Of a stretch of 64,000 nucleotides of DNA, positions 36,768 to 57,869 are shown in pieces. This stretch comes from an uncultured bacterium. GTDB taxonomy: Bacteria; Babelota; Babeliae; Babelales; Vermiphilaceae. The stretch spans positions 1 to 64,000 of the forward strand of contig OY969699.1 in assembly GCA_963702025.1 (NCBI GenBank). The letters are read 5' to 3'. Under the pieces are notes generated by a model that was not told the origin of the DNA, ran no database searches, and was given only the letters and a program-made list of their open reading frames with translations. Each line of letters begins with the position of its first letter. Within the stretch, counting starts at the first letter, position 1. The translations under genes and the position numbers were made by a program.

Positions 36768-36990
36768 AGGGTCGCCATACCTATACATTCCAGGAACCTT
36801 GAAACTGAGATTGATATATGTTTAAGCCACATTCAGATGGTGTTTGCATCATTTTTTAGAATTAAACTATAAGAATTAACTTTTTAATACCAAAAAGAGC
36901 CAAAGCGCTTTGCAAATAAATCTAGCCCGTTCTTGCACTCGTATTTTATGCTCCTCAAAGATAGGCTGGTGTTCATATATTTCCGGCTCT
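36768..36990. pseudogene. Orphan recombinase C-terminal tail (+) abutting the 3' remnant of gene X (-)
   Basis: Similar to 39610-39815; RNLETEIDICLSHIQMVFASF on +, QPIFEEHKIRVQE/GLDLFAKRFGSFWY on -. Confidence 0.7.
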
Positions 36991-36998
36991 CGTGGTCG

Positions 36999-37553
36999 TT
37001 ACTTTTTCTTTAGTACTTCCGCAAACATCTCTATCATCGCGGTGTTATACACAGGTATGTCCGCCGGCCATCTGCTCGTTACCAAAAGGCCATCTCTAAC
37101 TACAGGCTTATCCACCCATTTTGCTCCCGCATTCTCGAGATCGATTTTAATCGAAGGCCATGAGGTGACAGTTTTTCCTTTTAGGCCACCTGCATTACTT
37201 AGTGTCCACGGCCCATGGCAAATTGCAGCAATTGGCTTTTTAGCATCGATAAATGCTTTAATAAAAGCAATTGCCGAATCGAATCTGCGTAATTTATCAG
37301 GATTGATTACCCCACCCGGAAGATGTAGCGCATCAAAATCATCCGGATTTGCATTATTTAAATCGAGGTCGACAGGAAATTCATCTCTCCATTGGTCATC
37401 AATCCATCCCCTTATTTTTCCATACACAGGAGAAATAAGCACTGTTTTTGCGCCGGCTTCATCTAATGCTTTTCTAGGCTCTGTCATCTCATTTTGTTCA
37501 AAGCCAGTATCGCAAAGGATCGCGACTTTAAGTCCTTCTAATTGTTTTTTCAT
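36999..37553 (-). CDS. PfpI/DJ-1 family type 1 glutamine amidotransferase-like protein
   Basis: GFEQNE, LPGG..NPDKLR, AAICHGPW. Confidence 0.93.
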   Translation of the reverse strand: MKKQLEGLKVAILCDTGFEQNEMTEPRKALDEAGAKTVLISPVYGKIRGWIDDQWRDEFPVDLDLNNANPDDFDALHLPGGVINPDKLRRFDSAIAFIKAFIDAKKPIAAICHGPWTLSNAGGLKGKTVTSWPSIKIDLENAGAKWVDKPVVRDGLLVTSRWPADIPVYNTAMIEMFAEVLKKK

Positions 37554-37692
37554 GTAAACTCCTCGGTAAATATTTTCTATAGCTTATATATATTTTGAGG
37601 TAAAAAATAAAGAGTTTTTATGAATGGCGCTAAAACGGTGAAGTTGAGTAATTATGTCCCTTAGAAATAGGACATGTCAAATTTAAAAAGAG

Positions 37693-37802
37693 TTGTGTGC
37701 CCGCTAAACATGTTCAGGAACCATGAAATAGAATTCGGCATTAGCTTAAGCCACATTCAAACGGTATTTATAACTTTTGGGATTGAATTGAAAATTCAAT
37801 AA
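37693..37802 (+). other. Orphan recombinase C-terminal tail / att scar
   Basis: CPLNMFRNHEIEFGISLSHIQTVFITFGIELKIQ*, similar to the tail at 39608-39724. Confidence 0.65.
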
Positions 37803-37955
37803 AATCAAAAACTACTTTATGGATTCAAATGGGATTTAACACTTATTTTATCTAATGGATCCCAGTTTAGATCAAAGACTTTAAAAATAGTCTTTAGTTG
37901 TAAAATTGGCTATTGCTCGCTCTATCACTAATAATTTGAATCATTAAAAATCCAC

Positions 37956-38240
37956 CTACTGAAATCTAATCTCCAAATCTTTACCCAAAGCTAGAGCGGC
38001 TCTATAAAGAGTCAAGAGGGTAACTGAATAGTTTTCCGGATTAAGCAAACGCATTAAAGCAGCTCGACTTGTGCCAATCCGTTTTGCCATTTCTGTTTGT
38101 GAGATTTTCTTCTTTTTCATTTCTTTAGTAACTTGTTCAGCTATAACCTTTTTTATAGCAGCAAGCTCAGCTGCTTCTAATGTACCTTCTTCTTTCAAAA
38201 GTTCATCAAAGCTTGATCCAATGTATTTATTCTTTGACAT
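37956..38240 (-). CDS. XRE HTH antitoxin-like protein
   Basis: IGSSFDELLKEEG, SQTEMAKRIGTSR, VTLLTL. Confidence 0.85.
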   Translation of the reverse strand: MSKNKYIGSSFDELLKEEGTLEAAELAAIKKVIAEQVTKEMKKKKISQTEMAKRIGTSRAALMRLLNPENYSVTLLTLYRAALALGKDLEIRFQ

Positions 38241-38241
38241 T

Positions 38242-38517
38242 TTATTTCTTTAAGTCTCGATAAAAATTTTCATGAGAGCCCAATGCTAGCAAGATTAGTT
38301 CTTGCTTGTGCGCATTATAATCATAAGCAAGCAAAGTAAGTTGATTTACCATTTTAAATTTATACACCTGGACTCCATTTAAATCACCTTTTTTCAAATC
38401 ACCAATAGTAGGATTTTTAATAATTGCCTTTACGGCTTCATCCAATTCTTTTTTTTGGTTTTTATGTAATTTCTTTATTTGCTTCGAAAAGGTTGTAGTT
38501 TGCTGAATATTCATCAT
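38242..38517 (-). CDS. RelE/ParE family toxin
   Basis: GDLKKGDLNGVQVYKF, LLAY, GSHENFYRDLK. Confidence 0.88.
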   Translation of the reverse strand: MMNIQQTTTFSKQIKKLHKNQKKELDEAVKAIIKNPTIGDLKKGDLNGVQVYKFKMVNQLTLLAYDYNAHKQELILLALGSHENFYRDLKK

Positions 38518-38741
38518 TACTTCTCATCAAAACGATAGGCCTTTAATTTTCCCGCTTCAGCTTCTTCTTGTGCAATTAGAACGTTTTTGATGAATTCATA
38601 ACTTAAATCAGGATTTTCTTCGGCAATTTTCCCTATCCTAGCCCAATGTTCAATTTGCCCTGCAAGAGATCTATTAAGAGCTTTAGATATGATTTTAGCT
38701 TCAGAGACAATATGTTCTGACAATTTAACTGCAGTCGCCAT
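38517..38741 (-). CDS. ParD-like antitoxin
   Basis: AVKLS..RSLAGQIEHWARIGK.AEENPDL; overlaps the toxin start. Confidence 0.88.
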   Translation of the reverse strand: MATAVKLSEHIVSEAKIISKALNRSLAGQIEHWARIGKIAEENPDLSYEFIKNVLIAQEEAEAGKLKAYRFDEK

Positions 38742-38893
38742 TTGTATTCCTCTTAGACTTAGAATTATAGAGCTTAGAATCAATTTATATTATAACCCAT
38801 TTGGTTGCATTTTGAAACCTTATGAAAATTTTTTTGTTGCACCAAGGTGAAAATTTCCTCTTTTCACCAAAGTAATAATTTCCGCTTTTTTGT

Positions 38894-39136
38894 CTACTTA
38901 AATAACCTCCATTTGCCTTCAACTAAGTGCAAAGTTTGTTTTAATGATTGATTCCAAGGATGATTTGCAGCCGGTTTGTGCGGGACGCGATCGATGCATT
39001 TTGGTGCAGCGAGAGGCTTTGGATCGCGTCCATTGCGAAAGTTTAAATATAATCCCTTTAATGAAAGTAAAATTTTGCCATTAAGCAATTGACTAACGGT
39101 AATGCTATTTTTGGGCTGAATTTTTACCGGTTGCAT
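38894..39136 (-). pseudogene. Transposase C-terminal remnant (ISNCY/IS1202-like)
   Basis: KPAANHPW motif as at the end of these transposases; abuts the truncated recombinase. Confidence 0.45.
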
Positions 39137-39145
39137 TCGATCTAA

Positions 39146-39724
39146 TTGAAAGATTTCCCCTCCGTATTGAATTGTAAAATCATCGCTGATTCATTAAACC
39201 AACTGCATTTAGATAAGATTGAATTTCACAACAAACATTATGGCAAGCTCATAAATCAACAACAGCAGATTACCAAAATGCTGGATAATTTATATATCGA
39301 TAAAGTGAAAGGGAGAATTACTGAGAGCGAATATGAAAAATTCTACATTTCATTTTATGATGAAGCGGCAGAAATAAAATCCCAACTTGATAAATTAGGG
39401 GAAGCTCAAGACAACTACTTTATTACCGCAAAATACGTACTAGATCTGGTTAACCGAGCTCACGAATTATTTGAAAGTTCTGAAGTTGAGGAAAAGAGAC
39501 AATTAATCAAGCTTGTACTTCAGAACCTAAGACTTGAAGATGATAAGTTGCTCTGGGACGCTGTTAAACCCTTTGATACACTCTTAAATGTGTCCGATAG
39601 TCAAGGATGGTGTGGCCTGCCTAATGCATTCAGAAACAAAGAAGCAACCATGGGATTCACCTTGCAGCATATCCAGACGATATATTCATCATTTAGAATT
39701 GAACTTCAAGAATTAATTTTTTAA
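39146..39724 (+). pseudogene. 3' remnant of a large serine recombinase
   Basis: Closely similar to 46850-47280 (KMLDNLY.DK.KGRITESEY, SSEVEEKRQL); no catalytic domain. Confidence 0.88.
39600..39620 (+). repeat. Candidate att site (left), direct repeat with 47256-47276
   Basis: GTCAAGGATGGTGTGGCCTGC vs GTCAAGGATGGTGTAGCCTGC (20/21). Confidence 0.6.
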
Positions 39725-40281
39725 TACCAAAAAGAACCAAAGTGTTTTGCAAACAAGTCTAATCCTTCTTGTACTCTTTTTTTATGCTCATCAAAGATAG
39801 GCTGATATTTATCATATAGGGGTCCACATATTTTTATTCTTTCTTCCATTTCATAGCTGCGATATCCCAGCTTATTGGGATTGGTTTCCAGCTCTTCTAT
39901 TTCGCGCATTTGAGTTTGATAAGTCTTTCTAATCTTTCGGCATTCTTTAAACATCTCTTTTTGAGCTGGACCATCCCAATCTATTGAATTATCTGAAAGC
40001 GCTTTGAATGAATAGACGATTTTATCAAGAATTGAAATCCATTTTTGTAAGCACTGTGCTTCATCTTCTTCTGACATATCATATGGGTTGTTAATATCCT
40101 CAGTCATAGTCATTGGAAAACCGGCGCTAGTTCCCTTCTTATCATATCTGGCGCGATATTTTTTAAAAAGAGGATACAGAACACGCGCTATAGTTTGATC
40201 CATATCCATAAGATCCATCCAGGTTGCTGACACTTTTACTTTATCTTTTCCTTTTTTTGGATATTCGATTAATACTTTCAT
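39721..40281 (-). CDS. Phage-type conserved hypothetical protein (gene X)
   Basis: D.TIARVLYP.F..GFP..W..ILDKI..SF..VQEGLDLF pattern; second remnant copy at 36884. Confidence 0.65.
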   Translation of the reverse strand: MKVLIEYPKKGKDKVKVSATWMDLMDMDQTIARVLYPLFKKYRARYDKKGTSAGFPMTMTEDINNPYDMSEEDEAQCLQKWISILDKIVYSFKALSDNSIDWDGPAQKEMFKECRKIRKTYQTQMREIEELETNPNKLGYRSYEMEERIKICGPLYDKYQPIFDEHKKRVQEGLDLFAKHFGSFWY

Positions 40282-41401
40282 GCTGTTTTCGTTTTTCTTT
40301 TATATTTTTTTCTGCTAACAATTCTTGCTTTTCCAACTCTGCTTCTATTTCTTTAACCGTTGGTAAACTTCCTTTGAGATCTTTTGGCAATGATTCAACT
40401 ATCTTAGCCTGATAACTTGCAACTCCTATAGGCTTAGAGCTTGCTTGCAGCGCATATTCAACAGTGAGACTATCTTTATCTTTGCAAAGAATAAGACCTA
40501 TTGTTGGCTTATCTCCTGGATGCCGCATTTCATTATCAACTGCTGATAAATAAAAGCCTATCTGACCCGTATCGCGTACATCAAATTCTCTTGCCTTAAG
40601 CTCTACAATAATAAAGCAACGTAATTTAAGATGATAAAATAGAAGATCTATATAATAATCTTTATTGCCGATATGCAAATGGACTTGTCTTCCAATAAAC
40701 GCAAAGCCCTGGCCAAGCTCCAAGAGAAACTTTTGAATATGATCAGTTAATCCTTGCTCCACATCTCTTTCATTATGTTCAGTATGAAGCGTTAAAAAAT
40801 CAAACAAATAGGGATCTTTTAATGATTGATGAGCCATATCAGAATGAGGTTTGGGGAGCTTTACTTCAAAATTGGTAATGGCTTTGCCTTGCCTACCATA
40901 AAGATCGGATTCAATCCAAGATTCAAGCATGCTACGGCTCCAACCATTTTCTATGGCTTTTTGAGCATACCAAAAGCGCACCTTATTCTCTTTCAGTTTT
41001 TCTAGTAATACCGCATTATGACCCCATGGAATTCTAAAAATGGGCAAATTTTCAATTTGTCCCACAGCTGTGGGATTTTTAGAATAGGCAGTAAAGAAAG
41101 CTTTCATTCTAAAGATATTAGATCTTGAAAATCCAGCTATCCCTGGAAAAGCGGCTTGTAGATCATGAGCAAGTTTTTCAACAAAATTTGTTCCCCAGCC
41201 ACTTTTTTCTTGCTTTTCAGTGATAATATTTCCAATTGCCCAATAAAGCATAGTAAGCTCTTGACCGGCAGCAATAGCAGCTTTAATTTGAGATTCTTGA
41301 ATTTTATTCTTAATATCCGCAAGTGTTTGCGCATATTCTTTGGTAGACATTTTTATAACAGTAGCTTTATTTTTCTTTGCAATATTACTTTTCTTTGCCA
41401 T
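40241..41401 (-). CDS. YhcG/DUF1016 PD-(D/E)XK nuclease domain protein
   Basis: LYW.IG, KDPYLFDFL, FLLELGQGFAF, IDLLFYH, IVELK. Confidence 0.93.
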   Translation of the reverse strand: MAKKSNIAKKNKATVIKMSTKEYAQTLADIKNKIQESQIKAAIAAGQELTMLYWAIGNIITEKQEKSGWGTNFVEKLAHDLQAAFPGIAGFSRSNIFRMKAFFTAYSKNPTAVGQIENLPIFRIPWGHNAVLLEKLKENKVRFWYAQKAIENGWSRSMLESWIESDLYGRQGKAITNFEVKLPKPHSDMAHQSLKDPYLFDFLTLHTEHNERDVEQGLTDHIQKFLLELGQGFAFIGRQVHLHIGNKDYYIDLLFYHLKLRCFIIVELKAREFDVRDTGQIGFYLSAVDNEMRHPGDKPTIGLILCKDKDSLTVEYALQASSKPIGVASYQAKIVESLPKDLKGSLPTVKEIEAELEKQELLAEKNIKEKRKQHESINRISKKRKR

Positions 41402-41429
41402 TACTAATTTCCCTTTTTTGTATTTCTAT

Positions 41430-41831
41430 TTAAGCAAGCAACTTTTTATACTGATATAATAAATAATCAATTTCTCTTACTTCTTGTTCAAGAATATTTC
41501 GTCGTTCATAGAATTCACCTAATTTCTTAAATTCATCAAAGGGAATAACTCTAGCAGGTTGCACATCTAATGGGACAAGAGCGGCTAAAGGTTGTGATTT
41601 CTCCGCTGCTTCATTCAGCTCTTTGTGTGTTTGCCTAGACAGCTTCTCTAATCTTTCAACCTCTGTCATAAAAAAGACACGAATCGACTCGCAAATGAGT
41701 TCTGATTTATCTTTTTTATTATTTTGTTTAATAGTGGTTGCATAGAGCTGCATTAACATTTCATATTCTTGGCTGCTCAGATAATGCGTTACTTTTACTT
41801 TTTTATCTGCATTATTTTTTTTGATTTCCAT
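41430..41831 (-). CDS. Hypothetical protein, possible ribbon-helix-helix regulator
   Basis: KVTHYLS..EYEML...KSELICESIR pattern. Confidence 0.55.
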   Translation of the reverse strand: MEIKKNNADKKVKVTHYLSSQEYEMLMQLYATTIKQNNKKDKSELICESIRVFFMTEVERLEKLSRQTHKELNEAAEKSQPLAALVPLDVQPARVIPFDEFKKLGEFYERRNILEQEVREIDYLLYQYKKLLA

Positions 41832-42354
41832 AAGATTCCCTTAATTACAAAAAAAAGACAATTAAAATGGTATTTCCTTGGCCCGCCAATGTCAAATAAA
41901 TTTTTTTTCTAAATTTACCATCATGCCATCAATAGTATTTTAGGAATTAAATAAATGTCTTTGCTTGCCTTTCTCAAAAATCGCATTTATAATCACCCAC
42001 AATAATAAAGCATCCGTCTTCGTTCTCTAAACTACGCCGGACAAGTCATTGCATCAAAGGATGAGCAGCATGAAACACTTCATATACATCAGATTATTAT
42101 ATCTGAGTCAAATCACCCAGGATGGGGAATGTTGCGAGCAGAATCAATTAAGTTGGCTCGGGACTAAATAAGCCCCATCTATCTAAATAAATAATATTAT
42201 TAATTTAAGCTGAATTTCAGCATCGATGATACTGATGAGCAGTATCGGATCGAGCCTGTTCTTCGTCCTTCGAGACGCATCTAGCGATGCCCTCAGGATG
42301 AGCGGAAGGCGCGTTTACTCCCAAGCAAAGTCGAGGGATCAAAAGCGAAGTAGA

Positions 42355-42606
42355 ATGTATATGTTGTTCAAAAATTCTCGTGTGCGCCGCCGATTGGTTG
42401 TGCGCAATCCTATGACTATCAAAATTGCTCTTCCTTTGGATGATCATCGTAAGCTTGAGGCCTTTGTTGCATTGTTGGCACAAATAGATAAGCGCAATAA
42501 AGCAAACGGCAAAGACACCAAATCAAGAGATCCAACCAAAGCTAAAGATGCCTTCTTAAGGCAATATAGAAAAGGCTCACCTTTAAGTGGGCCTATTTTT
42601 TTTTAA
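42355..42606 (+). CDS. Small hypothetical protein (start uncertain)
   Basis: ORF track; LEAFVALLAQIDKR helix. Confidence 0.4.
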   Translation: MYMLFKNSRVRRRLVVRNPMTIKIALPLDDHRKLEAFVALLAQIDKRNKANGKDTKSRDPTKAKDAFLRQYRKGSPLSGPIFF

Positions 42607-42663
42607 CAATTGTTATACTGTTTTAAAAGTTTTACTCAACTCTACATATGTAAAGGAATCATC

Positions 42664-43314
42664 ATGAATAAATATATTGCTCCCCTACTTTTAATTTGTT
42701 GCACTTCAACAAACTTTTGTATGGAATCACTTAAGTATGCATATCCTTTATGCCAAGCAGCAAGTCAAAATGATGTAACAAAAGCACGAGAACTCATAGG
42801 ATTGGGAGCGCATCCTGATAGAATACCTGGCGGTGATGATCGCACACCATTATGGTATTCAGCGGTTAATGGGCATGTTGAAATGATTAAATATTTGCAT
42901 TCTATAGGCGTAGCTCTTAATGGATATTCTGGAGGAGCCACGGCATTATATGCCGCAGCCATGAAAAATCATGTACAAGCAGCTCGCGCTTTAGTTGATG
43001 CGGGTGCAGATGTGAATGCTGGATTTCCTAATGATAAACCAATTTTAGTTGCTGCATCATCAGGAAGTATTGATGTGATAAAATATCTTATTAGTTTGCC
43101 TAAGGTTAACATCAATCAAAGAGATAATGGCAGCTATACCCCTCTTTGGTATGCCTCATTTAAAGGACACTTGACAGTAGTACAAGCTTTAGTTGAAGCA
43201 AAAGCGGATTTAACTATAAAAGGTTTTGATGGTAACACACCATTAAGCATTGCCAAAGAAAAAAAACATGAAGCCATCGCTCAATATTTAGAACAAAAGC
43301 TTCTATCTGAATAG
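42664..43314 (+). CDS. Secreted ankyrin-repeat protein
   Basis: 5-6 ankyrin repeats (TPLWYSA, TALYAAA, TPLSIA); signal peptide ending NFC-ME. Confidence 0.92.
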   Translation: MNKYIAPLLLICCTSTNFCMESLKYAYPLCQAASQNDVTKARELIGLGAHPDRIPGGDDRTPLWYSAVNGHVEMIKYLHSIGVALNGYSGGATALYAAAMKNHVQAARALVDAGADVNAGFPNDKPILVAASSGSIDVIKYLISLPKVNINQRDNGSYTPLWYASFKGHLTVVQALVEAKADLTIKGFDGNTPLSIAKEKKHEAIAQYLEQKLLSE

Positions 43315-43433
43315 CGTTAAAATTTTCTGAAAGTATAAAGAAAAAGGCTCACTTTTAAGTGGGCCCTTTCTTTTCTTAATAAATAAACTATCCTGCATTA
43401 TTGATCTTATAATCTTCAGCTTGGTATATACAT

Positions 43434-44624
43434 ATGATCGATACGGTAGTTCTTCTTCTTCCTCCAGATACATTCACTATTAGCAATCCAGATAAATTTG
43501 TGCCATCCTACTTCGCCAAGGCTACGAAGGACGGGTCCGCACGAAATAATTCCTATTATATGCATGGTATGCATGCAAAGCAGAACCCCACTAAGAAAGA
43601 ATTAGCCGCTGGCATATATAAGCCCAGGCTAACTTTGTTTTATAGTTTTCCCCACAAACAGGTAATGTTGAAAATCGAACTCTCACTACCCAAGCTCTTT
43701 TATGGCAATAATTTTCAAGAGCTTAAAGGGAAAGATCTGCAGCCTATTTTACAAAAGCTTTCATCAATTTTAGGCCAAATGGAGGTTATTGCGGATCTTA
43801 AAGAGCTGAGCAAAGCTCAAGTAAGTAGCGTTCATTATTCCAAGAATATTGCCCTCACCGATGGATCAACTCCTTATCACTATATTCAAAAGATCAAAGA
43901 GTCGAATATCAAGATGAGCCTTGATGTAAATCAAACCGATTATCGCAATGAAGGCCATAGCTATAAATGGCACTGCAATTCATATGAGGTGGTCTTTTAT
44001 GATAAGATTAAGGATCTTGAAAAAGCAAAACAAAGCGATAAACGAACAATAGAAAAAGATAGTGCATTGCAATTGAATTTATTCCCAAAGTTTGGGCAAC
44101 GTGGATTCGGCGGGCTCACCATGAAACGGAAACTGGAAATCTTACGCATGGAAGTGCGATTAAATAAGCGGCAAAAAATTAAACAGCTTTTCAATAAGCT
44201 GGGCATTAGATCAGACTTATCTTTTAAAAGCCTTTTTAAGCCCGCTATCTCAAAGAAGATCCTGCTTCATTATCTTTATGAATTAGAAAGCAAACGGCCA
44301 GCCCTGCTTGATTATAAAATATCTAGCGATAAGGGATTGCTCACTGATCTTATATTAAATAACCCCGAACTAGGATCAAAAAGAATTTTGCAAATATATG
44401 GGCTGGCCAAAGCACTGCAGATAGTTAATCTGCGTGAATTAAGAGCTATGTTTGCAGGAAGATGGCGCAGCCAAACGAAGCTCCGCAGGAGCGAAGACTG
44501 GTATCGGCTAATGGCTAATGCGAAAGGGGTAAAACTACCGGGAATTCGAAGCCCTTTTGGGGCAATTAGGGATCACATAGCAAAATTTAAGCCTTTAAAG
44601 ATTAATCAAAGCCTAAAGAGCTAA
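43434..44624 (+). CDS. Rolling-circle-type replication initiator (gpII/CRI-like)
   Basis: MIDTV start, IELSLPKLFYGNN, VHYSKNI, VFYDKIKDL and LRMEVRL motifs. Confidence 0.65.
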   Translation: MIDTVVLLLPPDTFTISNPDKFVPSYFAKATKDGSARNNSYYMHGMHAKQNPTKKELAAGIYKPRLTLFYSFPHKQVMLKIELSLPKLFYGNNFQELKGKDLQPILQKLSSILGQMEVIADLKELSKAQVSSVHYSKNIALTDGSTPYHYIQKIKESNIKMSLDVNQTDYRNEGHSYKWHCNSYEVVFYDKIKDLEKAKQSDKRTIEKDSALQLNLFPKFGQRGFGGLTMKRKLEILRMEVRLNKRQKIKQLFNKLGIRSDLSFKSLFKPAISKKILLHYLYELESKRPALLDYKISSDKGLLTDLILNNPELGSKRILQIYGLAKALQIVNLRELRAMFAGRWRSQTKLRRSEDWYRLMANAKGVKLPGIRSPFGAIRDHIAKFKPLKINQSLKS

Positions 44625-44722
44625 TGGAGCCATTTTCAAGCAGTCTTGACTTTCATTGGAATTATGCCAAACTGAATAATAACATAAAGAATTATACGCC
44701 TAATTGTCTAAATGGAGAATTT

Positions 44723-45595
44723 GTGAAAAAGCTTTTATTTTTTTTACTTATAACAACTTCTTTTACACCAATATATACAATGCAAAAAACTACAATTCCA
44801 TCCTGTATTGGGTATACAATTGCAGGTACCCAACTCTTAAAGGACAGCATAGGCCACTACTTGTCCTGTGATTCTCTGTTAAAACAACCTAAACCAGACA
44901 AAACAGTATCCGACTTTTTAGAATCATATATTCCAGCAACAGGATATACAGAACCTCTTCATATTAGATTATATTTTTGGCTTTCAGGACCCCAAATGGG
45001 ATCATTTAAGGGGAACATTATTATAATATCAAATTATGCGCACAATGATATACGCTCACTGTTAGAAAAACAACAAAAAGTAGCCCCTGTAGCTGAATTA
45101 TCAGAAATTCAAAAACAGCTTGATGGTTATGGTGCTCTATTTCAGCATGAAATAGGCCATCTAAAAAACAACGATGTACACAAAAGAGTATATTTAACAC
45201 TCGCAGTATCACTCAGCTCTTTAGGCATTTCTCATCTTTTAAATCAATGCCTATTTAAAAAGCAAATTACTACGCTGTCGGGCAATGTTGTATGGGGTAT
45301 CTGCATAACTCTTATTAATTTTCTTATCACCAAAGAAATTAATAAAAAACTTGAATTGCAAGCAGATAAAAGCATACCCGCAAATAAAAAAGTACTAGAA
45401 GGTTTTAGAAAATTCATGGCGCAATTGGATGAGCGAGAAAAATCGGTAATAGCAGCAATAGGAAAAAACAATTCTCCCTTTATTGCTCAACTCAAAAGAA
45501 ACACATTGAAATTCATAATTGATTGCTTCGAGGATCATCCCTCGTACGAAGATCGAATAGCCCGCATTGATGAACGACTCGGAAGCATTAAATGA
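44723..45595 (+). CDS. Secreted M48-like zinc peptidase
   Basis: HEIGH, ELQAD, DHPS...RI; GTG start after GGAG. Confidence 0.8.
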   Translation: MKKLLFFLLITTSFTPIYTMQKTTIPSCIGYTIAGTQLLKDSIGHYLSCDSLLKQPKPDKTVSDFLESYIPATGYTEPLHIRLYFWLSGPQMGSFKGNIIIISNYAHNDIRSLLEKQQKVAPVAELSEIQKQLDGYGALFQHEIGHLKNNDVHKRVYLTLAVSLSSLGISHLLNQCLFKKQITTLSGNVVWGICITLINFLITKEINKKLELQADKSIPANKKVLEGFRKFMAQLDEREKSVIAAIGKNNSPFIAQLKRNTLKFIIDCFEDHPSYEDRIARIDERLGSIK

Positions 45596-45818
45596 GCTCT
45601 ATAAGTGCAAAGCATTTACTCTTTATGATTTAAACATTTGAGTTTTCATATTAATTAAGTGTCGCACCATAAGGAAATACAATATTAATGCGTTATTAGG
45701 CACTTGGTAATGCAGGTAAAAGACCGTCTAAGGCTCGTAAAGACATAGAAATATTTTGCTTTCCCTTTAAACTGCTACCTGGTTCTGAACACTTCAACCA
45801 TCCAGCAGGTATACATTC

Positions 45819-47353
45819 ATGAAAGCAATTCTCATCGCACGTGTAAGCACGGAAGAACAAAAAGAAGCCGGCAATTCATTACCAGCTCAAGTGATGCGAC
45901 TGGAGCGCTACTGCCAAAATAAAGGCTTTGCAATCATTAAAACATGCAGTTTTGGTGAAAGTGCTTATTCAGATAATCGCGATGAGTTTGATCGCATTCT
46001 TGATTTCATTATTGAGCAAAAAGAAAAGATTGTAGTCTGTTGTGATAAAGTTGATCGCTTAACTCGAAATGTATTTGATAAGCGTGTTTCGTTTCTTTAT
46101 GAAAAAGCACTCAAGGATGAACTTGAATTACATTTTGTATCCGATGGACAGATTGTAAATAGCAGAATCTCTGCCGTTGAAAAATTCCAATTTAATATCA
46201 GCTTAGGATTGGCACGTTATTATTCAGATGCCATTAGCGATAATATTAAGCGCGCCATTGAACAAAAGCTCCGCAAAGGAGAATGGCCCGCCAAAGCATC
46301 TTTTGGCTATCGCAATATCACGCGTGAAGATGCAAGAAAGATATCATTGTGGATGAATTTCAAGCAGCTATTGTGCAAAAGGTATTTGAACTCTATGCAT
46401 CGCGAGCATTTTCCATGGAATTACTGCGCGTTAAATTAAATAAAGATCATGGCTTAAAGTGGTCCAAAGGATTTACCGATAAGCTGCTTAAAGATAATTT
46501 TTATCATGGCATCATGGTATGGAATGGCAAAAGCCATCCACATCGCTATCCTCCTATTATCTCCAAACAACTTTTTGATCAGGTGCAAGCTGTGAAAACA
46601 GGATTTAATAAAAAGAAATTTAAATATGCAGGCAAGCCATATATCTATCGTGGCATGATTCGCTGCGCCGATTGTGGCATGTCTATTGCCCCTGAAAAAC
46701 ACAAGGGCTTTGTGTATTACCATTGCACGCAATACAATGGCAAGCATGATGCGAAATGGCTACGAGAAGAAGAGATTATCCGCCAAATAAGCGCTATCTT
46801 TAAGCGTCTTGAGATTCCCAAGGATGTGCTTAAACAAGTAACAGAAACGATAAACCAGACCAATCAAGATCAAATAGACTTTCATAATACCCACTATGAT
46901 AAGCTCATATCAAAGCAACGAGATCTATCTAAAATGCTCGATAATTTATACCTGGATAAATTGAAAGGGAGAATTACTGAGAGCGAATATGACAAATTTT
47001 ACACATCATTATATGCAGATGCCCAAGAAGTTACTACCCAACTTGCTCAATTACAACAGGCAGAAAATGATTATTATATCACTGCAAAATACGTTCTGGA
47101 TCTAGTAAGCCGAGCTCACGAACTTTTTATGAGTTCTGAAGTGGAAGAAAAGAGGCAGTTATTGAGGCTCGTACTTCAGAACCTAAGGCTTGAAGGTGAA
47201 AACCTGCTCTACGACGCAATAAAACCGTTTGATTTACTACTGGAATGTTCTGATCGTCAAGGATGGTGTAGCCTGCAGGACTATTTCCGCAACACTATCA
47301 TTGAAGATAGCATAGTATTTGATATCAGCCCATTTCTAACCGCATGCGCATAA
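45819..47353 (+). pseudogene. Large serine recombinase, single frameshift near 46332
   Basis: ARVSTEEQ, DKVDRLTRN, GYRN, Zn ribbon RCADCG..YYHC; restoring one base gives REDGKKDIIVDEF. Confidence 0.88.
47256..47276 (+). repeat. Candidate att site (right)
   Basis: Direct repeat of 39600-39620; similarity falls off after it. Confidence 0.6.
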
Positions 47354-47453: not shown

Positions 47454-47756
47454 ATGGATAGATTATCATTCGGCGAAACGGTTCAAGATCTTCGAAGAAA
47501 AAAACGATGGACTGTTAAAAATTTTATTGAGCATCTTGATCTGGATGTTTCACCTGCCTATATTACCAAGATTGAAATTCATGGCGAAATACCGAATCCC
47601 AATATTATTTGCAAGATAGCTGATGCATTTGATATGGATTATGAAGATCTTTTATCTACTGCCAAAACAGATAAAGTGAAATATTTTAAAGAATCTTTAG
47701 AAAAAAAATATGTACGAGCTGCGGGCTTATATCGAATACAACGGGAGATCAAATGA
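47454..47756 (+). CDS. XRE/Cro-C1 HTH repressor
   Basis: FGETVQDLRR, VSPAYITKIE..P. Confidence 0.88.
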   Translation: MDRLSFGETVQDLRRKKRWTVKNFIEHLDLDVSPAYITKIEIHGEIPNPNIICKIADAFDMDYEDLLSTAKTDKVKYFKESLEKKYVRAAGLYRIQREIK

Positions 47757-48490
47757 ACCATAATCATATTGCTAAAATCGCTTCTGCTTTTTTTGCAGAT
47801 CAGTGTTTTGAAATTTATAAACACGCAATGGGTTGGCAAAACCCGGAAGAAATGATCGTAAATGTTATGGAGATATATGACAATGTTATTTATCCCGAAT
47901 ACGAATTCTCTTTAGATATGAGTACTGATCTTGGCGAATATGAGAACCAAAAAGTATTAGGCAAAACAATGCCAAAAGAAAAGATCATCGCCATTGACCC
48001 GTCAATAGCACCTGCAACTAATGATCCACGATTTCCATTTACCATGGCACATGAAATAGGCCATGCGCTTCTTCATCAAAGCGAAAATATGCCATTGTGT
48101 CGGACCACCGCAAGCACTTTTGCCAATAAGCATGACCCACTTGAACGAGAAGCTAATGCCTTTGCTGTGCAATTATTAATGCCTTCTGATCTTGTACAGC
48201 ATCGGTTTCAAGAATATTATGGAAGACGATCATATCCATATGTAGGCCCACGAATGTATTGGATAAACGGAGAGAAAGTTTATATTCGCTCCCTGCTTCA
48301 TTTATGCCTTAAATTAGCAGCGCCATTAACACGTTATTTTTCGAACGTTTCTAAGGCAAGCCTTGCCTATACTTTACACAACATCGGGCTTATTGCTAAC
48401 CAAAAGAATGAAAAAATTGGGCCAAACGTTCTTTTCCTTCCAGAATCTTTTCTGAGCCCTGATTGCCATGATTTTTGCGATACAGAATGA
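47753..48490 (+). CDS. ImmA/IrrE family metallopeptidase
   Basis: FTMAHEIGHALLH, EREANAFA..LLMP; ATGA overlap with the HTH gene. Confidence 0.9.
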   Translation: MNHNHIAKIASAFFADQCFEIYKHAMGWQNPEEMIVNVMEIYDNVIYPEYEFSLDMSTDLGEYENQKVLGKTMPKEKIIAIDPSIAPATNDPRFPFTMAHEIGHALLHQSENMPLCRTTASTFANKHDPLEREANAFAVQLLMPSDLVQHRFQEYYGRRSYPYVGPRMYWINGEKVYIRSLLHLCLKLAAPLTRYFSNVSKASLAYTLHNIGLIANQKNEKIGPNVLFLPESFLSPDCHDFCDTE

Positions 48491-48512
48491 AATATATTTT
48501 TTTGTCAACTTA

Positions 48513-48530
48513 TTAACCAAATTTAGTTAA
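48513..48530. promoter_or_regulatory. Second operator copy
   Basis: ttaaccaaatttagttaa imperfect palindrome. Confidence 0.65.
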
Positions 48531-48542
48531 AAGGGTGTACTT

Positions 48543-48695
48543 TTGAAATACGATGCAGCAAAGAAAAATATTATAATCAATCATAATGAAATACCATTTT
48601 ATATCACCTACGAAGGAACCGATGGAAAAAAGGAGTACGTACTAAAGCCAAACAGCAAACGCTCAAAACTATCACTCAATAAAAAAGAATACTAA
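48543..48695 (+). CDS. 50-aa small protein
   Basis: TTG start after AAGGG; MKYDAAKKNIIINHNEIPFYITYEGTDGKKEYVLKPNSKRSKLSLNKKEY. Confidence 0.5.
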   Translation: MKYDAAKKNIIINHNEIPFYITYEGTDGKKEYVLKPNSKRSKLSLNKKEY

Positions 48696-48795
48696 GTAAA
48701 GCCAGCCAGCAAACGATTACGCGTTAATCAAGTAGCCAGCGAGCCAGCGATTGATCCTTACGGATTTAAAGCTGGCTTTATTTTTTGGTAATGAG

Positions 48796-48966
48796 ATGCC
48801 AACAAAAAACAATCACCAAACAACATTCCCAAGCAATTTTCCATCACAAGTAGATACCAGGCCGCTTATTGATCTATTTGCGCTCCTGCTTGAATGGGAA
48901 ATGAACGAAAAAGAAGAAACCGAACAGGAGCAGCCAAGCATTGTTGAAAGGAGCCAGAACCATTGA
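48796..48966 (+). CDS. Small hypothetical protein
   Basis: ORF track; LIDLFALLLEWE helix. Confidence 0.4.
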   Translation: MPTKNNHQTTFPSNFPSQVDTRPLIDLFALLLEWEMNEKEETEQEQPSIVERSQNH

Positions 48967-49061
48967 GATTAACACGCAGTCTTAGAAAACAAGCAAAAAT
49001 AAATTAATAAAAAAGCCACTTAGGCGTTGAAGCTAAGTGGCTCAAAATAGAGAGTTTTATT

Positions 49062-51455
49062 ATGACTAATTATAGCGTAAAAAGCCGCGATTTAAAAGCA
49101 GAATGTGCGCAACATATGGCAGAAAATGGCTTGCCAATAACTGAGCCAATTATTGCTGATGATAAGATTCATCGCTATTCAGCAGACAACAAAAAGAATG
49201 AAAGAGATGAATGGTATATTGCGCATGAGGGGATTTCAACAAAAGGCAATCCCTATTTAGTATGCTCATATGGCTCATGGAGCGCGGGTTCTAAGCATGA
49301 ATTTAAATCATTCAATCAATCCAACCCATTCGATGAGCATGAGCAAAAAGAATTACATACCTGGGTAAAAAGAAAAAAAGAAGAAGCTGAAAATCAATTA
49401 AAAGACGCACAGAATGATGCGGCAGCAGTAGCCACTATCATATGGCAAAAATCGGCTGATACGCCTCTTTATGATGAATGTTTGGATTATGCAAAAGCAA
49501 AAGGGATTACTCCCGGCAAAATAAAATATGGGACCAATCCCAATGGATTCCCGGCAATAATTATCGATATAAGAAATACAGCAAATGAAATACGTTCGTT
49601 GCAATTTATTTCGATGGGCAGCGATAACAAATCATATAAAACATTTTTAAGCGAGGGAGAGAAAAGGGGCAATTTCCACATTATTGGAGAAGCTCTTGAT
49701 GGAGCACCAATTTATCTTGTTGAAGGCTATGCAACCGGCGCAAGCGTTTATGCAGCTACAAATATGGCAACCGTTGTAGCCTTTGATGCGGGCAACATAG
49801 ATCCCGTTGTGGAAAATATAAAAAAGAAGTTTCCAAACAGCGCAATAACAATTGCCGGAGATGCGGATGAAATTGGCAGAAAAAAAGCATCTGAAGCAGC
49901 AAAAAAATTTGGATGCCGTATTGCTTTCCCAGAATTTCCTGAAGATAAAAAGAAAGACCATACCGGCAAAGATTACAAAGATTTTAATGATTTGCATCAG
50001 ATGTGTGGACTCAATGAAGTTCATGAACAACTTCAAAAAGCAGTTCCCATCATCACTGCGCAAGATGAACTAAGAGCATTAGCAGATACCTTAACGGAAA
50101 AAGAAGATCCGTGTGCATATTTTAATGTATCGGATCTTCCCGAGCCATTGAGAGATTATATCGCGACGCTCTGTCAAACCACTGATGCGCATCCAATCAT
50201 GATAACCTGCTCGGTATTAGCAACCGTCTCGGGATTTTTAGGAACGCGCGTATACATTCCAAAAGGATCTTATTATCAAACACTCTATCCCAATTTGTGG
50301 TTGCTCTGCGTCGCAAAAAGCGGCCAGCATAAAACTACTTCTTTAAATAATGGCGGTGAAATTGCATTTGAAAAGCAAGCGCAGATATTTGATGTCATCA
50401 AGTTTCTTGAATCGGAGCTTAAAGAGACTGATGATCAAGCAAGAAGAAGTGAATTGATGCAAGCAATACTCAATGAATCTTTAAAGAGTGTCATATTGCC
50501 AACCAGAACATCCGTGGAAGGATTAATCCAGCATCTGGCTAAAGGCCATCAGGGCATAATTTTTGCCAGTGAATTTGGCGCATGGCTTCAAAATTTGGCA
50601 AAAAATCACAACACTGATTTAAAGGGGATTCTCACCGATTTTTTTGATGTCCCCACAAGTTGGCGCAATCTCACAAAAACACAAGGTGATGATATTGTAT
50701 GCAGGCCATATCTTTCCATTTGTGGGGTTTCAACGCTGGCATGGTTAAGGGGCAATCTTGATCCAACAGATGTAGCAACTGGTTTTTTTGCGCGCTTTCT
50801 CATTTTTGCGCCGCCTCATTTTGATTCAATCCCATCGGGCTTGCCCAAGCCCACTCAAATGGCACAGCAGACTGCCAAAGATAATTTTAAAAATGTTCTG
50901 GATACTATCTTACAAGCGATTGGGCAAGAGCGAAGATTGATTCTATCCGAGGATGCTCAGATAGTTTTTGACAATCCCGTTGATAACAAAGGATTGCATC
51001 AAAAGATCTATGTTATTGCCAAATCATATGATGATAAGTGCCAAGAAATATTAGCCCCGTATCTGAAGCGATGGAGCCCTTATTTACTTAAACTGGCAAT
51101 AATCATGCAACTTTTTGATGACCCCGAATCAACTGAAATAGAACCCAAAGCACTTTTGGCAGCTCTATCTATTCTGGTTCCTGCAATAAAATCAACCGCC
51201 TTTCTCTGGGCAAGTGAACTAGGAGAATCGGAACATCAGCGCAAATGCCGCATTGTTCTTGAGTGGATATGTCAAAAAGTTAAAGATACCGGCAATCCAA
51301 TTAAAAGGCAGAGCATCCTCGCATCAAAAAAATTAGCCGGCGGGGTTACCGAATATGATTATGTATTATCGTCTTTGGTTGAGCAAGGGAAGCTTAAATA
51401 CGATGAGCAAAAACCAAAAAATGAATCGTTATATAGCCCAAAAGAAAATAGTTGA
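49062..51455 (+). CDS. TOPRIM primase fused to DUF3987 (helicase-like) domain
   Basis: LVEGYATG, VAFDAGN, AGDAD, DFNDL; AKSGQHKT P-loop variant, SEFGAWL, GFFARFL. Confidence 0.88.
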   Translation: MTNYSVKSRDLKAECAQHMAENGLPITEPIIADDKIHRYSADNKKNERDEWYIAHEGISTKGNPYLVCSYGSWSAGSKHEFKSFNQSNPFDEHEQKELHTWVKRKKEEAENQLKDAQNDAAAVATIIWQKSADTPLYDECLDYAKAKGITPGKIKYGTNPNGFPAIIIDIRNTANEIRSLQFISMGSDNKSYKTFLSEGEKRGNFHIIGEALDGAPIYLVEGYATGASVYAATNMATVVAFDAGNIDPVVENIKKKFPNSAITIAGDADEIGRKKASEAAKKFGCRIAFPEFPEDKKKDHTGKDYKDFNDLHQMCGLNEVHEQLQKAVPIITAQDELRALADTLTEKEDPCAYFNVSDLPEPLRDYIATLCQTTDAHPIMITCSVLATVSGFLGTRVYIPKGSYYQTLYPNLWLLCVAKSGQHKTTSLNNGGEIAFEKQAQIFDVIKFLESELKETDDQARRSELMQAILNESLKSVILPTRTSVEGLIQHLAKGHQGIIFASEFGAWLQNLAKNHNTDLKGILTDFFDVPTSWRNLTKTQGDDIVCRPYLSICGVSTLAWLRGNLDPTDVATGFFARFLIFAPPHFDSIPSGLPKPTQMAQQTAKDNFKNVLDTILQAIGQERRLILSEDAQIVFDNPVDNKGLHQKIYVIAKSYDDKCQEILAPYLKRWSPYLLKLAIIMQLFDDPESTEIEPKALLAALSILVPAIKSTAFLWASELGESEHQRKCRIVLEWICQKVKDTGNPIKRQSILASKKLAGGVTEYDYVLSSLVEQGKLKYDEQKPKNESLYSPKENS

Positions 51456-51726
51456 AACAGTTGAAAAGAGTTGAAACAAGAATCAACTTTCAAAGCGCCG
51501 ATCTGAAGCGCATTAATAACAATTTTAATAGGAAGTTGAAAAATTGAAAGAAGAGGAAGGCGAAACCGCTCGCCCTGAGCTGGTCGAAGGGTGTGAGCCA
51601 AATAAAAATCAGAGCCCGGATTTCTTCAACTTTTCAATCGCTATCAATTCTATATGCCGGACATTCGATCAAAAGCACCAATTAAGCGGTTGAATGATCA
51701 CCCAACTATCTTCAATCGTTTCAACT
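51451..51726. repeat. Iteron-like GTTGAA direct and inverted repeats (candidate origin)
   Basis: GTTGAAA at 51451, 51460, 51470, 51535; inverted TTCAAC copies near 51625 and 51720. Confidence 0.6.
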
Positions 51727-51738
51727 AAGGAGAACCAA

Positions 51739-52224
51739 ATGAGCACTCTTAAAGAACATACAAGAAACTTTGATAAAGCATTCTTTTTGGAATCATTTCC
51801 CGATAACAATAAGCTCAAACCAGCTGTAAAAAGACCGCCTTCCATTCCTGCTAAAATTGATAATCAAATCAAAGCACCTACTATTGTTAAACTTGCGCCT
51901 GTAATCCCCGCAAAACGAGAAGACTCAGCTCTTGAAACACAATCAAAATGGAGCACAGAAGATCAAGCCTTAATTGATTTGTTCCACAAAAATAAAAGCC
52001 GTTTGCCGCTTAAGCCCTATATCTTAACATATAAAGATGGGTATCTTGAATTCCCTTTACATGTGAATTATCCGGCCGAATGGTACACTAAGCTTGAAGA
52101 ACAAATTACGCAAGGGCCTCAAGGAGATCGCGTACAAAATGGGCTTTTGCAAAGAGATTTAAAAAAATTAACAGAGCATTTAGGATTGCTCAAAAATTCG
52201 GAGGTAATCAATGAGCGAAAATAA
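51739..52224 (+). CDS. Hypothetical protein
   Basis: AAGGAG RBS; overlaps the next gene. Confidence 0.6.
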   Translation: MSTLKEHTRNFDKAFFLESFPDNNKLKPAVKRPPSIPAKIDNQIKAPTIVKLAPVIPAKREDSALETQSKWSTEDQALIDLFHKNKSRLPLKPYILTYKDGYLEFPLHVNYPAEWYTKLEEQITQGPQGDRVQNGLLQRDLKKLTEHLGLLKNSEVINERK

Positions 52225-52864
52225 AATCACAACTAAAACTACAATAGAACAAGCATGCCGAGAGAAGTGGCAAGAGCGTAAAACTGTTAATTCTATCACA
52301 AAAGAAAAAAATATAACAAAAAGATGGAATCCTCTTCTAGGAAATTCTTGGCGCGACAATAAACCGCATCCTGACGCACTAAAAGATCTGGCAAAGAGAA
52401 TGCGTGCATGGGCACAAAAAGATACATCGTTACGATTTGACGATTTCCTTGATGAAGAGAATGTTCCGACAAGTACCTATTATACGTGGCGCGATGAATG
52501 CCGAGAATTAAAGGATGCGCATGAATTTGCAATTCGCAGACTAGCGTCACGCCGTGAGAAGTTGGCTTTCTTTAAGCAGGCTGACAAAGAAATATTTTTG
52601 AAAACGCAACATATGTATGATCCGAAATGGGATAAAGAAGTTAATCAATATGCTAAGAGTCTGCGACTTGAGGAAGACGTTACTCCTGGTAAGACAAAGT
52701 TCATCGTAGTACATTCTAATGTGTGGGCACCAGAAAATATAGAAAATGCTCCAAAATATCTCTCTGATAATTTGGATGCCGAAGGAAAAGAATATTTGCG
52801 TGAAACTGGCATGGATAAAGATATTGGGGATCTTAGTGATTTCAGAAAACCAAAAAATATTTAA
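52211..52864 (+). CDS. Putative terminase small subunit-like protein
   Basis: HTH-like F.DEENVPTSTYYTW..ELKDA, helical middle and IFLK motif; position after primase and ori. Confidence 0.45.
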   Translation: MSENKITTKTTIEQACREKWQERKTVNSITKEKNITKRWNPLLGNSWRDNKPHPDALKDLAKRMRAWAQKDTSLRFDDFLDEENVPTSTYYTWRDECRELKDAHEFAIRRLASRREKLAFFKQADKEIFLKTQHMYDPKWDKEVNQYAKSLRLEEDVTPGKTKFIVVHSNVWAPENIENAPKYLSDNLDAEGKEYLRETGMDKDIGDLSDFRKPKNI

Positions 52865-52942: not shown

Positions 52943-53836
52943 TTGAAGTTACCGCAACCATTTATAGAAAATATAATAAGAATATGGGGCGATCAAGGTT
53001 CTGTATGGCTCAAAGAGTTGCCTGATCTCATAAAATTTTTTTCTATCCAATGGCAACTGAATGACGTAAAGACATTTGATAATCTCAGCTTTAATTACGT
53101 AGCAAAAGCTTATAGCAATTACTATAACCAACCAGTGGTGCTTAAAATTGGTATCCCATCGCCCGAATTTCTCAATGAAGCCCTGGCAGTTGAATATTAT
53201 GGCGGGAATGGCTGCGTTAGATTACTTAAATTCGATCAACAAAAGAGCGCTATGCTTTTGGAGTTAATACAACCGGGAACTACTGTGCAATCATGGTTCC
53301 CCGCTGATGATGATAAGGCGGTAGAAATTGCCAGCCAAGTGATGAAAAAATTGCACTCACGGGCGATTACTGATCCTTCAGATTTTCAAACCATAGATCA
53401 GTGGTTTTCACTATTTGACACCTTAGAAGTTCCTGAAGATCTTAAAAAGCATATAACAAAAGCTCGTTTACTTGCAGATGAATTAAAGCAGACTGTTCAA
53501 GTGCATTATTTGTTACATGGTGATCTGCATCATGATAATATTCTGCTCGATTCCAAAGGGAATGGCATCGCTATCGATCCTAAAGGAGTCGTTGGCGAAC
53601 AAGCATATGAGGTCGGTGCTTTTATGTGTAACCCAGCAGAATTATCAGCGCAGTCTGATTATCCTGCAATTATTGCTCGTCGGTTAGATTTGTTCTCAAC
53701 ATTCTTATCTATTGATAGAAACAGACTTGCAAATGCCTGCTATGTACGCGTCATTCTATCTGCATGTTGGTCTGTGCAAGATAAAGGAGATTGGCGCGAT
53801 GATGTTCGCTTTGCTGAATTAATTCTACAATCTTGA
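52943..53836 (+). CDS. Aminoglycoside/hydroxyurea kinase (APH(6)-like)
   Basis: VVLKIG, LLHGDLHHDNIL, AIDPKG. Confidence 0.88.
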   Translation: MKLPQPFIENIIRIWGDQGSVWLKELPDLIKFFSIQWQLNDVKTFDNLSFNYVAKAYSNYYNQPVVLKIGIPSPEFLNEALAVEYYGGNGCVRLLKFDQQKSAMLLELIQPGTTVQSWFPADDDKAVEIASQVMKKLHSRAITDPSDFQTIDQWFSLFDTLEVPEDLKKHITKARLLADELKQTVQVHYLLHGDLHHDNILLDSKGNGIAIDPKGVVGEQAYEVGAFMCNPAELSAQSDYPAIIARRLDLFSTFLSIDRNRLANACYVRVILSACWSVQDKGDWRDDVRFAELILQS

Positions 53837-53887
53837 TTCTTCTTCTCAAATACTGATAATTTCATAGAAAAAACTGTGAGGAAGAGA

Positions 53888-54721
53888 ATGGTATTCAAAA
53901 AGAAGCTGCTTTTTAATCTACTAATCATAGCAATTCCAAATGTATGCTTATCAATGACCTCCGAGAATGCTGCAATAAGAAAAAAGGCGATAATTATTGG
54001 CGCAAGTTCAGGGATGGGTAGAGAAGTTGCAAAACTATTAAGCAAAGATGGGTATGAAGTGGGGCTCGTTGCTCGGCGCACAGAATTACTCAAATCCTTG
54101 CAATCAGAGTTACCAACAACTTCACATATCAAACAAATTGATATTGCCAGTTCTCATGCGCGCGAACAATTACAAGAATTAATAACTCATATGAAGGGCC
54201 TTGATCTTTGCGTCATCAGCATTAGCGCAAATTGTGATAATCAAAATGAAGGCGCAGATCATTGGGCAAGCAAAGAAAGAACTATTAATGTTGATGGAAA
54301 AGGATTTATTGCGCTTGCAGATTTAGTATTAGAGTATTTTAAAAAGCAAAATCATGGGCATTTAGTAGGCATTTCATCCACCAGTGGCCTGCGCGGCTCT
54401 GCCGCAACTCCGGTTTATTCAGCAATGAAATCCGGCATATCTTGCTATATGGAAGCGCAATGGAATTATATGGCTCAAAATAACTATAATATCCACATAA
54501 CCAGTGTGGTCCCCGGTTGGGTCGCCATTGAATACGCTCCGATGGGAACCGATCCGGCAGCTTATTGGGAAATTTCGGTTGAACAGGCCGGCAGAGAAAT
54601 TATGGCAGGTATTAAAGCACAAGAAAAGATGGTGTATGTGCCGCGCAAAGTCTGGCTTGTTGCATTACTTCTTAAATACTTGCCCGATTGGGTTTATAAC
54701 AAGTATTTAAATTGGTTGTAA
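53888..54721 (+). CDS. SDR family oxidoreductase with N-terminal leader
   Basis: IIGASSGMG, YSAMK. Confidence 0.9.
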   Translation: MVFKKKLLFNLLIIAIPNVCLSMTSENAAIRKKAIIIGASSGMGREVAKLLSKDGYEVGLVARRTELLKSLQSELPTTSHIKQIDIASSHAREQLQELITHMKGLDLCVISISANCDNQNEGADHWASKERTINVDGKGFIALADLVLEYFKKQNHGHLVGISSTSGLRGSAATPVYSAMKSGISCYMEAQWNYMAQNNYNIHITSVVPGWVAIEYAPMGTDPAAYWEISVEQAGREIMAGIKAQEKMVYVPRKVWLVALLLKYLPDWVYNKYLNWL

Positions 54722-54730
54722 TATGGCTTT

Positions 54731-55789: not shown

Positions 55790-55804
55790 AAAAAACCTGT
55801 TGTT

Positions 55805-57855: not shown

Positions 57856-57869
57856 GACGGACCTCTCTT

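Follow-up and report, generated by a model that had tools for sequence, protein, structure and literature searches.

The window, the whole 64,000-nucleotide stretch analysed here, comprises bases 1-64000 of the 1.596-Mb single-contig genome of an uncultured bacterium that is likely one of the Babeliae, a group that infects protists according to PMC6561590. We found that four short related segments between positions 36768 and 47353 are the severed C-terminal tails of large serine recombinases (LSRs). They belong to a stack of four units of likely mobile DNA, 35 kb in all (36768-71571), that ends at a tRNA-Arg(TCT) gene, so that the window covers its distal part. Taken as a whole, stacked insertions at this tRNA combined with a regulatory role of the tail are the explanation that we consider probable. 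We are highly confident of the anatomy and of the insertion history, while the chance that the tail would regulate the recombinase appears even.

An earlier note on the window had described four related segments, two fused to recombinase bodies and two orphans. Both observations were borne out: the segments and their translations are as described, tails 3 and 4 (numbered from the distal end) continue in frame from LSR bodies (open reading frames (ORFs) 39146-39724 and 46349-47353, the second matching Pfam Recombinase and Zn_ribbon_recom), and tails 1 and 2 are orphans. The 21-bp repeat said to link bodies and tails is real, with 20 of 21 bases identical between its copies, but the host tRNA has only the 6-bp core TGGTGT in common with it; identity extends 8 bases to the left of this core, where the repeat consists of the ends of two paralogous clade-A bodies, and 6 to the right. 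The core corresponds to the ACACCA end of tRNA-Arg, and the Trp codon at the junction of LSR and tRNA-Arg is the complement of CCA. Exact TGGTGT recurs at 39608 and 47264, as at the tRNA-Arg junction, and none of four further copies between 36600 and 71600 starts a tail. The suspected likeness to a reversed tRNA 3' end could be aligned to the host tRNA-Arg(TCT), which matches the 17-mer quoted in the note at 12 of 17 bases, contiguously over the first 6 only. ARAGORN found no tRNA within the 64-kb window; in a whole-genome run the tRNA-Arg lies 7.6 kb past it (Table 1). The array is thus tandem, as had been proposed, but it does not stop at 47353: it runs to the tRNA at 71.6 kb, and therefore the supposed satellite at its end is a unit of 24.3 kb that has an LSR of its own.

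A tree of 39 rows, which excluded bodies with stops in their last 150 codons and whose bootstrap had not fully settled, divides the LSR bodies of this family into three well-supported clades (A, B and Q), and every clade has a tail type of its own. Both clade-A bodies of the window group (99/98) with tRNA-Arg A bodies of the related genomes G005 and G001, and the LSR at 70111 groups with tRNA-Arg B bodies. We scored the tails with profiles made from other loci only (10 A, 7 B and 3 Q tails), rebuilt after dropping L080 and L065 (likely chance matches), L070 (a tail on an other-clade body) and L083 (clade mis-called). These scores (Table 1) place tails 1-3 in clade A and tail 4 in clade B. With a threshold of 13 bits, a scan of the whole genome returned seven matches, namely the four array tails, those of a tRNA-Asp island (a member of the training set) and a tRNA-Gln island, and one likely chance match. 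On sequence grounds, the junction at 47264 is a cross-clade hybrid in which a clade-A body carries the tail of the roughly 30%-identical LSR at 70111. Tail 4 is not the unit-3 body's own, because an intact homologue 94% identical to that body (P0002) ends on tRNA-Arg antisense. Tail 2 is likely the cognate of the body remnant at 39176, since both are nearest to the tRNA-Arg element of G001 (0.85 and 0.82, vs 0.74 between the two window bodies).

The arrangement recurs in related genomes. A recombinase homologue is present in 34 of the 61 genomes searched. Named homologues of the window's recombinase bear the labels Babeliaceae, Babeliales or TM6, which makes Babeliae the likely host lineage. 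Of 29 other LSR loci, 26 have a body that terminates at the 3' end of a tRNA (Arg, Asp, Glu, Gln or Asn); this genome has two further LSRs of the kind, at tRNA-Asp and tRNA-Gln, whose clade-matched tails stand 7.5 and 32.7 kb upstream. We found the exact core followed by a W-x6-F-R-N-like motif upstream of 24 of 44 tRNA-ended bodies, and core and tail motif in 22 of the 33 for which at least 15 kb of upstream DNA was available. The tail motif stands behind 37 of 234 cores versus 60 of 8919 genome-wide. Of 120 homologues from databases, 62 terminate no more than 5 residues from the junction, 40 read on into tRNA antisense, 6 have an A, B or Q tail (one of them is from this window) and 12 end otherwise. 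The genes of the left flank are separated from tRNA-Arg by 4-9 kb in G001, G005, G006 and G007 and by about 40 kb here, and right-flank genes match in G002, G003 and G006.

We propose that the LSR gene spans its own phage-type attachment site (attP), so that body, core and tail would form one gene in the circular form. Insertion would therefore leave the body facing the tRNA and move the final 29-38 codons to the opposite end of the element. An element arriving later would likely enter at the boundary of the resident body with the tRNA and so join its own tail to that body, and the junctions at 39608 (A on A) and 47264 (B tail, A body) would be products of such stacking. The crossover would fall at core bases 5-6, in which case the discriminator base and CCA would come from the element. 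That attP lies inside the recombinase gene, as the earlier note had suggested, agrees with the body-tRNA fusions and the clade-matched tails upstream behind the same core; that each element starts with its own tail agrees with the clade-matched distal tails and with unit 4, which has a B tail and a B body. Successive insertion is likewise supported. In unit 1, however, no recombinase end precedes tail 2, and the unit is thus a remnant or passive cassette and not a complete element.

The LSRs contain Resolvase, Recombinase and zinc-ribbon domains in order, a catalytic Ser motif and an N-terminal RVS motif that aligns with TP901-1. Homology to A118 extends to profile position 465 and stops short of the junction Trp, which is residue 483 in P0049, a natural protein with an A body and an A tail; the tail-less body therefore keeps the canonical fold, and the tail lies beyond it. 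AlphaFold2 predicts for P0049 a fold that matches solved serine integrases, with tail helices at 484-491 and 501-510 (predicted local distance difference test (pLDDT) 85-88). Over codons 11-26 of A tails (n=11), nonsynonymous (pN) and synonymous (pS) differences are 0.42 and 0.71 in frame and 0.48/0.41 and 0.47/0.42 off frame (the pN/pS rows include L080, L065, L070 and L083), and 19 of 20 tails are open for 26-48 codons. The tail start also looks like a DNA arm. Arm symmetry in clade A is best at core bases 5-6 (7.5 of 16, next 5.7), and identity between tail arm and tRNA arm peaks at shifts 0 and 5, so that the first 10 tail codons appear to serve both as protein and as DNA arm. A 5-bp shift is expected for the zinc-domain motif according to extracts of PMC3783163, and the shift peaks partly match it.

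We hypothesized that the two-helix tail, which only enzyme expressed from the circle or from a tandem junction would possess, likely raises activity or steers direction, the tail-less enzyme of the integrated copy being damped. An intact tail-fused gene in the chromosome would then be unstable, and therefore mostly broken ones would persist. Indeed, 1 of 7 tail-fused bodies is intact versus 31 of 43 tRNA-abutting ones (Fisher p=0.006), a comparison confounded by age, the inner units being older, and by relatedness; this rarity agrees with an instability model in extracts of PMC7253208. Both tail-fused bodies in the array are broken, so that it encodes no full-length chimeric enzyme. A tail switch is made plausible by analogy with the SPbeta integrase, where the C-terminal helix of the recombination directionality factor (RDF) packs at the zinc domain and coiled-coil hinge (extracts of PMC11722253), and with SprA, whose extreme C-terminus is a possible toggle going by a title of Abe 2021 cited there. 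A stronger version, which we offer tentatively and consider doubtful, is that the tail itself would be the switch, with no separate directionality factor, and that arrays would act as a tail-exchange platform in which cross-clade hybrids, such as the A body with B tail here, remobilise inner units and body-less cassettes, making up an integron-like system of gene capture driven by serine recombinases.

Several observations weigh against this explanation. The clade call of tail 4 depends on a profile of 7 tails, the model of P0049 has a predicted template modelling score (pTM) of 0.47, and clade B is less clear than clade A both in codon constraint (0.61/0.79 in frame vs 0.65/0.69 and 0.66/0.66; 9 rows, 2 probably not cognate) and in symmetry, whose centre is ambiguous (6.1 at 5, 6.6 at 10). 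In the DNA fetched, 20 of the 44 tRNA-ended bodies have no exact-core tail. Four intact body-plus-tail proteins, context unknown, occur among the 120 homologues (P0015, P0037, P0049, P0070), and P0015 and P0070 are natural forms that cross clades. A body stands on the left at 6 of 75 tail junctions in 65 loci, with a seventh found separately; most orphan tails, tail 2 included, therefore need later deletions or another route. Lastly, no circle or empty-site junction was seen in the reads, which were four runs (share 0.05-0.14) represented by low-depth contigs only. One listed read joint, 39520 to 47243 with a 24-base side, was rejected as a circle joint; it fits paralogous body sequence. One read contig matches 36747-36983 with zero differences, and no listed read piece covers the unit-3 frameshift, for which an assembly error is possible.

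The same anatomy could also be read with the tail as an attP arm plus a mildly stabilising end, both enzyme forms recombining alike under a separate directionality factor. This fits the tail-less body, which retains every canonical LSR domain and is usually intact, and it fits the double duty of the first 10 tail codons. However, in clade A the codons past the arm show protein-level constraint, nearly all tails stay open, and tails covary with body clade; in body-less arrays, as in that of G040, the tails decay after about codon 14 while the arm stays conserved as DNA. We consider this reading possible but not probable. Alternatively, the tail could be a degradation tag, as on the repressor of phage BPs (extracts of PMC4557955), so that the circle-encoded enzyme would be short-lived. 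The last residue is Ala in tail 4 and in 3 of 11 other B tails, versus 6% of long ORFs, and both tmRNA tags of the genome end in Ala. However, an Ala end occurs in 1 of 29 A tails only, tail conservation is internal and the tail is predicted to be ordered, and we think a tag improbable. The two tmRNA genes are different, with different tags, lie 9.6 kb apart (genome 182482-182838 and 192053-192477) and are possibly island-borne.

Body-less units such as unit 1 might instead be true mobile cassettes that the LSR moves in trans, in an integron-like manner. Multi-tail loci (17 of 42 tail-bearing loci have at least 2 tails) and hairpin-type left arms, which precede 22 of 75 tails versus 0.2% in the background, favour cassettes, as do the six arms of G040 with their intervening toxin-antitoxin genes and the PfpI gene plus tail 2 that G005 has in common with the window. 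Yet the body remnant of unit 2 and the gene X stump of unit 1 are scars left by deletion, neither tail 1 nor tail 2 has a hairpin arm before it, and by eye the stump in front of PfpI is not the same in G000 as in G005; we regard trans-mobile cassettes as unlikely. The notion that the repeats are coding conservation among paralogs, with no recombination site, had been named in the earlier note as what would overturn its proposal, and we find it barely credible. Although 8 of 21 repeat bases are paralogous body sequence, bodies switch abruptly at the Trp codon to tRNA antisense or tails, 102 of 120 homologues end within 5 residues of that codon or in tRNA antisense, and tails occur without bodies behind the same core. 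Stacked insertion with a regulatory tail remains our preferred explanation.

Table 1. Features of the array, in window coordinates continued past position 64000 to the target tRNA.
Unit	Feature	Position	Strand	Basis
1 (36768-37691)	Tail 1, orphan clade-A LSR tail, decayed core, distal array end	36768..36872	+	profile score: clade A 25.9 bits, clade B 0.2 bits
1	Gene X 3' stump, same geometry as tail 3/gene X	36884..36985	-	repeat D15, alignment
1	PfpI/DJ-1 gene	36999..37553	-	domain scan
2 (37692-39607)	Tail 2, orphan clade-A tail, start of unit	37692..37802	+	profile score: clade A 53.1 bits
2	HTH_37, ParE-like and ParD-like toxin-antitoxin genes, cargo	37956..38783	-	domain scan
2	Clade-A LSR body 3' remnant, 5' part deleted	39176..39607	+	sequence comparison
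3 (39608-47263)	Core TGGTGT and tail 3 (clade A), in-frame fusion to unit-2 body, start of unit	39608..39724	+	profile score: clade A 42.9 bits
3	Gene X (phrog_11543, function unknown) and YhcG/DUF1016 nuclease	39721..41401	-	domain scan
3	Rep-like gene, lead only	43434..44624	+	Phage_CRI PF05144 in 26% of nearest Atlas cluster
3	Clade-A LSR body	45819..47263	+	frameshift near 46334-46339, codon 173-174
4 (47264-71571)	Core TGGTGT and tail 4 (clade B) fused to clade-A body, start of unit	47264..47353	+	profile score: clade B 23.1 bits, clade A 12.4 bits
4	Backbone: HTH repressor, IrrE/ImmA-like peptidase, Toprim-DUF3987 primase, two unknown ORFs	47454..52864	+	
4	Cargo: APH-like kinases, SDR, DAO, RING-ankyrin, M48, GNAT, beta-lactamase-fold and alpha/beta hydrolases	52943..64000	.	
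4	Intact clade-B LSR body	70111-71580	+	in-frame read-through into tRNA-Arg(TCT) 3' end
	Target tRNA-Arg(TCT)	71566-71642	-	core TGGTGT at 71566-71571

The gene content of the units is listed in Table 1. Tails 1 and 3 each adjoin the 3' end of a convergent gene X, over 76 nt at 86% identity (repeat family D15), as the earlier note had seen. The cores of tails 1 and 2 are decayed, and tail 2 has a 1-nt deletion relative to an intact copy in G005; its 9-bp match to tRNA-Arg was rejected as a longer core, being a product of that deletion. PfpI, its upstream region and tail 2 are 88.7% identical to G005 versus 68-77% for other shared genes, and this piece therefore likely moved as one. A promoter-like site for PfpI (37680-37651, 11 of 12 bases) is a consensus match only, and the promoter scan showed no enrichment (44 sites vs 42.4 expected). 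The unit-2 HTH gene also adjoins a tail at tRNA-Arg in G006, and homologues of the Rep-like gene are present in other clade-A islands. The tail-profile scan scored no further tails inside unit 4, whose cargo extends past the window to 70034. A DNA search of 7 same-genus genomes found no synteny for the block at 47.3-64 kb, only scattered pieces; a piece at 52.3-53.8 kb is 83% identical to a tRNA-Gln island of G004. The APH-like kinases and beta-lactamase-fold proteins (52943-63421) are family-level calls only. Dispersed repeats lie at 42264-42340 and 51563-51608, and copies of the former are often near tRNA genes in this genome and its relatives. The left flank (27889-35129) encodes four paralogous repeat proteins, which we take to be YVTN beta-propellers by their look, and two of the genes are apparently recent duplicates (90% over 300 nt).

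Tail-bearing loci elsewhere vary in form. In G040 (L050:1447-5420), six attachment arms stand 0.7-0.85 kb apart with toxin-antitoxin genes between them. G020 (L068:10495-18890 and L125:1560-1649) has five clade-B tails about 2.5-3 kb apart, at least 3 of its units having a large and a small gene that resemble toxin-immunity pairs. At L120 (G006:C1:107217-107738), a tRNA-Arg without encoded CCA is followed only by an HTH antitoxin gene, 91% identical to the window gene at 37956, and a tail-3-like tail, which makes a 0.5-kb unit. By eye, a hairpin repeat of about 35 bp abuts the tRNA CCA end in 7 of 30 tRNA-Arg loci (L100, L101, L103, L107, L108, L109 and L111); it may be a host arm or a cassette arm. 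In L057 (G013) and L135 (G041), tails lie on the strand opposite the nearby body or tail and possibly belong to the array of a neighbouring tRNA.

Control of directionality is the central question for serine integrases, which are major tools of genome engineering. If our explanation is correct, a recombinase family that edits its own C-terminus by recombination would offer a self-contained switch as well as broad-host integrases, since it would target the universally conserved CCA end of tRNAs and tolerate almost any sequence on the other host arm. The locus supplies natural pairs of tails and bodies, would explain the piling up of accessory genes at tRNAs in Babeliae, and displays in one genome the tandem hybrid state that has been modelled, not observed, for archaeal suicidal integrases. 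It also holds a warning, as the C-terminus that annotation gives to most such recombinases is a translation of tRNA antisense.

In the phage LSRs A118/LI, SPbeta, phiC31 and Bxb1, attP lies outside the integrase gene. The LSRs described here resemble them in domain order and fold, and probably in a 5-bp shifted motif between the attP and attB arms; direction in the phage LSRs is set by a separate RDF (extracts of PMC11722253), and no RDF candidate was identified here. Integrons use IntI, a tyrosine recombinase, with attI and attC, whereas the array ORFs scanned contain only serine recombinases and the junctions are tRNA-end cores; attC was not searched separately. The integrase of phage Mx8 is also a tyrosine recombinase. 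It shares with our LSRs an attP inside the integrase gene, but Mx8 is a single prophage with no tail-stacking array, and here LSR units stand in tandem. Extracts of PMC6070905 report that Mx8 integration gives the integrase a new 3' end and changes its specificity without inactivating it. The attP of mycobacteriophage BPs likewise lies in a gene, and integration removes a 33-residue C-terminal tail (extracts of PMC4557955); that gene encodes a repressor and the tail is a degron, a signal that is weak here.

Accretion of integrative mobilizable elements (IMEs) and cis-mobilizable elements (CIMEs) is described in extracts of PMC5704250 as integration, decay and new integration at the target-proximal site, with distantly related integrases sharing one tRNA site and chimeric att junctions. 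Our array is similar in having several units at one target, the inner ones decayed, and chimeric att junctions, but those passages mention no exchange of the recombinase C-terminus at each junction, as we propose for this array. SSV-type integrases also have their att site inside the gene and a tRNA as target; they are tyrosine recombinases split into two inactive pieces, whereas here the family is serine and all canonical domains are on the body. Extracts of Badel 2020 (PMC7253208) model hybrid integrases formed by tandem insertion of related elements and predict quick excision of reconstituted intact genes. Such tandems are there said never to have been observed, whereas here the tandem hybrid state is present in the chromosome.

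The closest likeness is to DsiB of Dehalococcoides, where the 3' end of a serine recombinase gene, dsiB, overlaps an att site (attL) and islands stand in tandem at ssrA (McMurdie 2011, PMC3146451, extracts, which also propose circle-only and adjacent-fragment ideas). The target there is ssrA, the repeat is 20 bp long and the islands have a module that includes dsiA; here the target is several tRNAs (tRNA-Arg(TCT) for the array) with a 6-bp core, and no module with dsiA, parB and mom was found among the array ORFs scanned. The C-terminal part of DsiB is called divergent in those extracts, with no conserved tail defined, whereas here we see clade-specific conserved tails and fused junctions, one of them cross-clade. 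Passages of PMC12884075 do not mention the design, and the literature searched, most subscription journals and all supplements lying outside its coverage, holds no description of tRNA-targeting LSRs with conserved severed tails. The pieces of the design are already known from Dehalococcoides DsiB, phage Mx8 and SSV-type hybrids; what this locus adds is a hybrid junction between clades and the tendency of tail-fused bodies to be broken.

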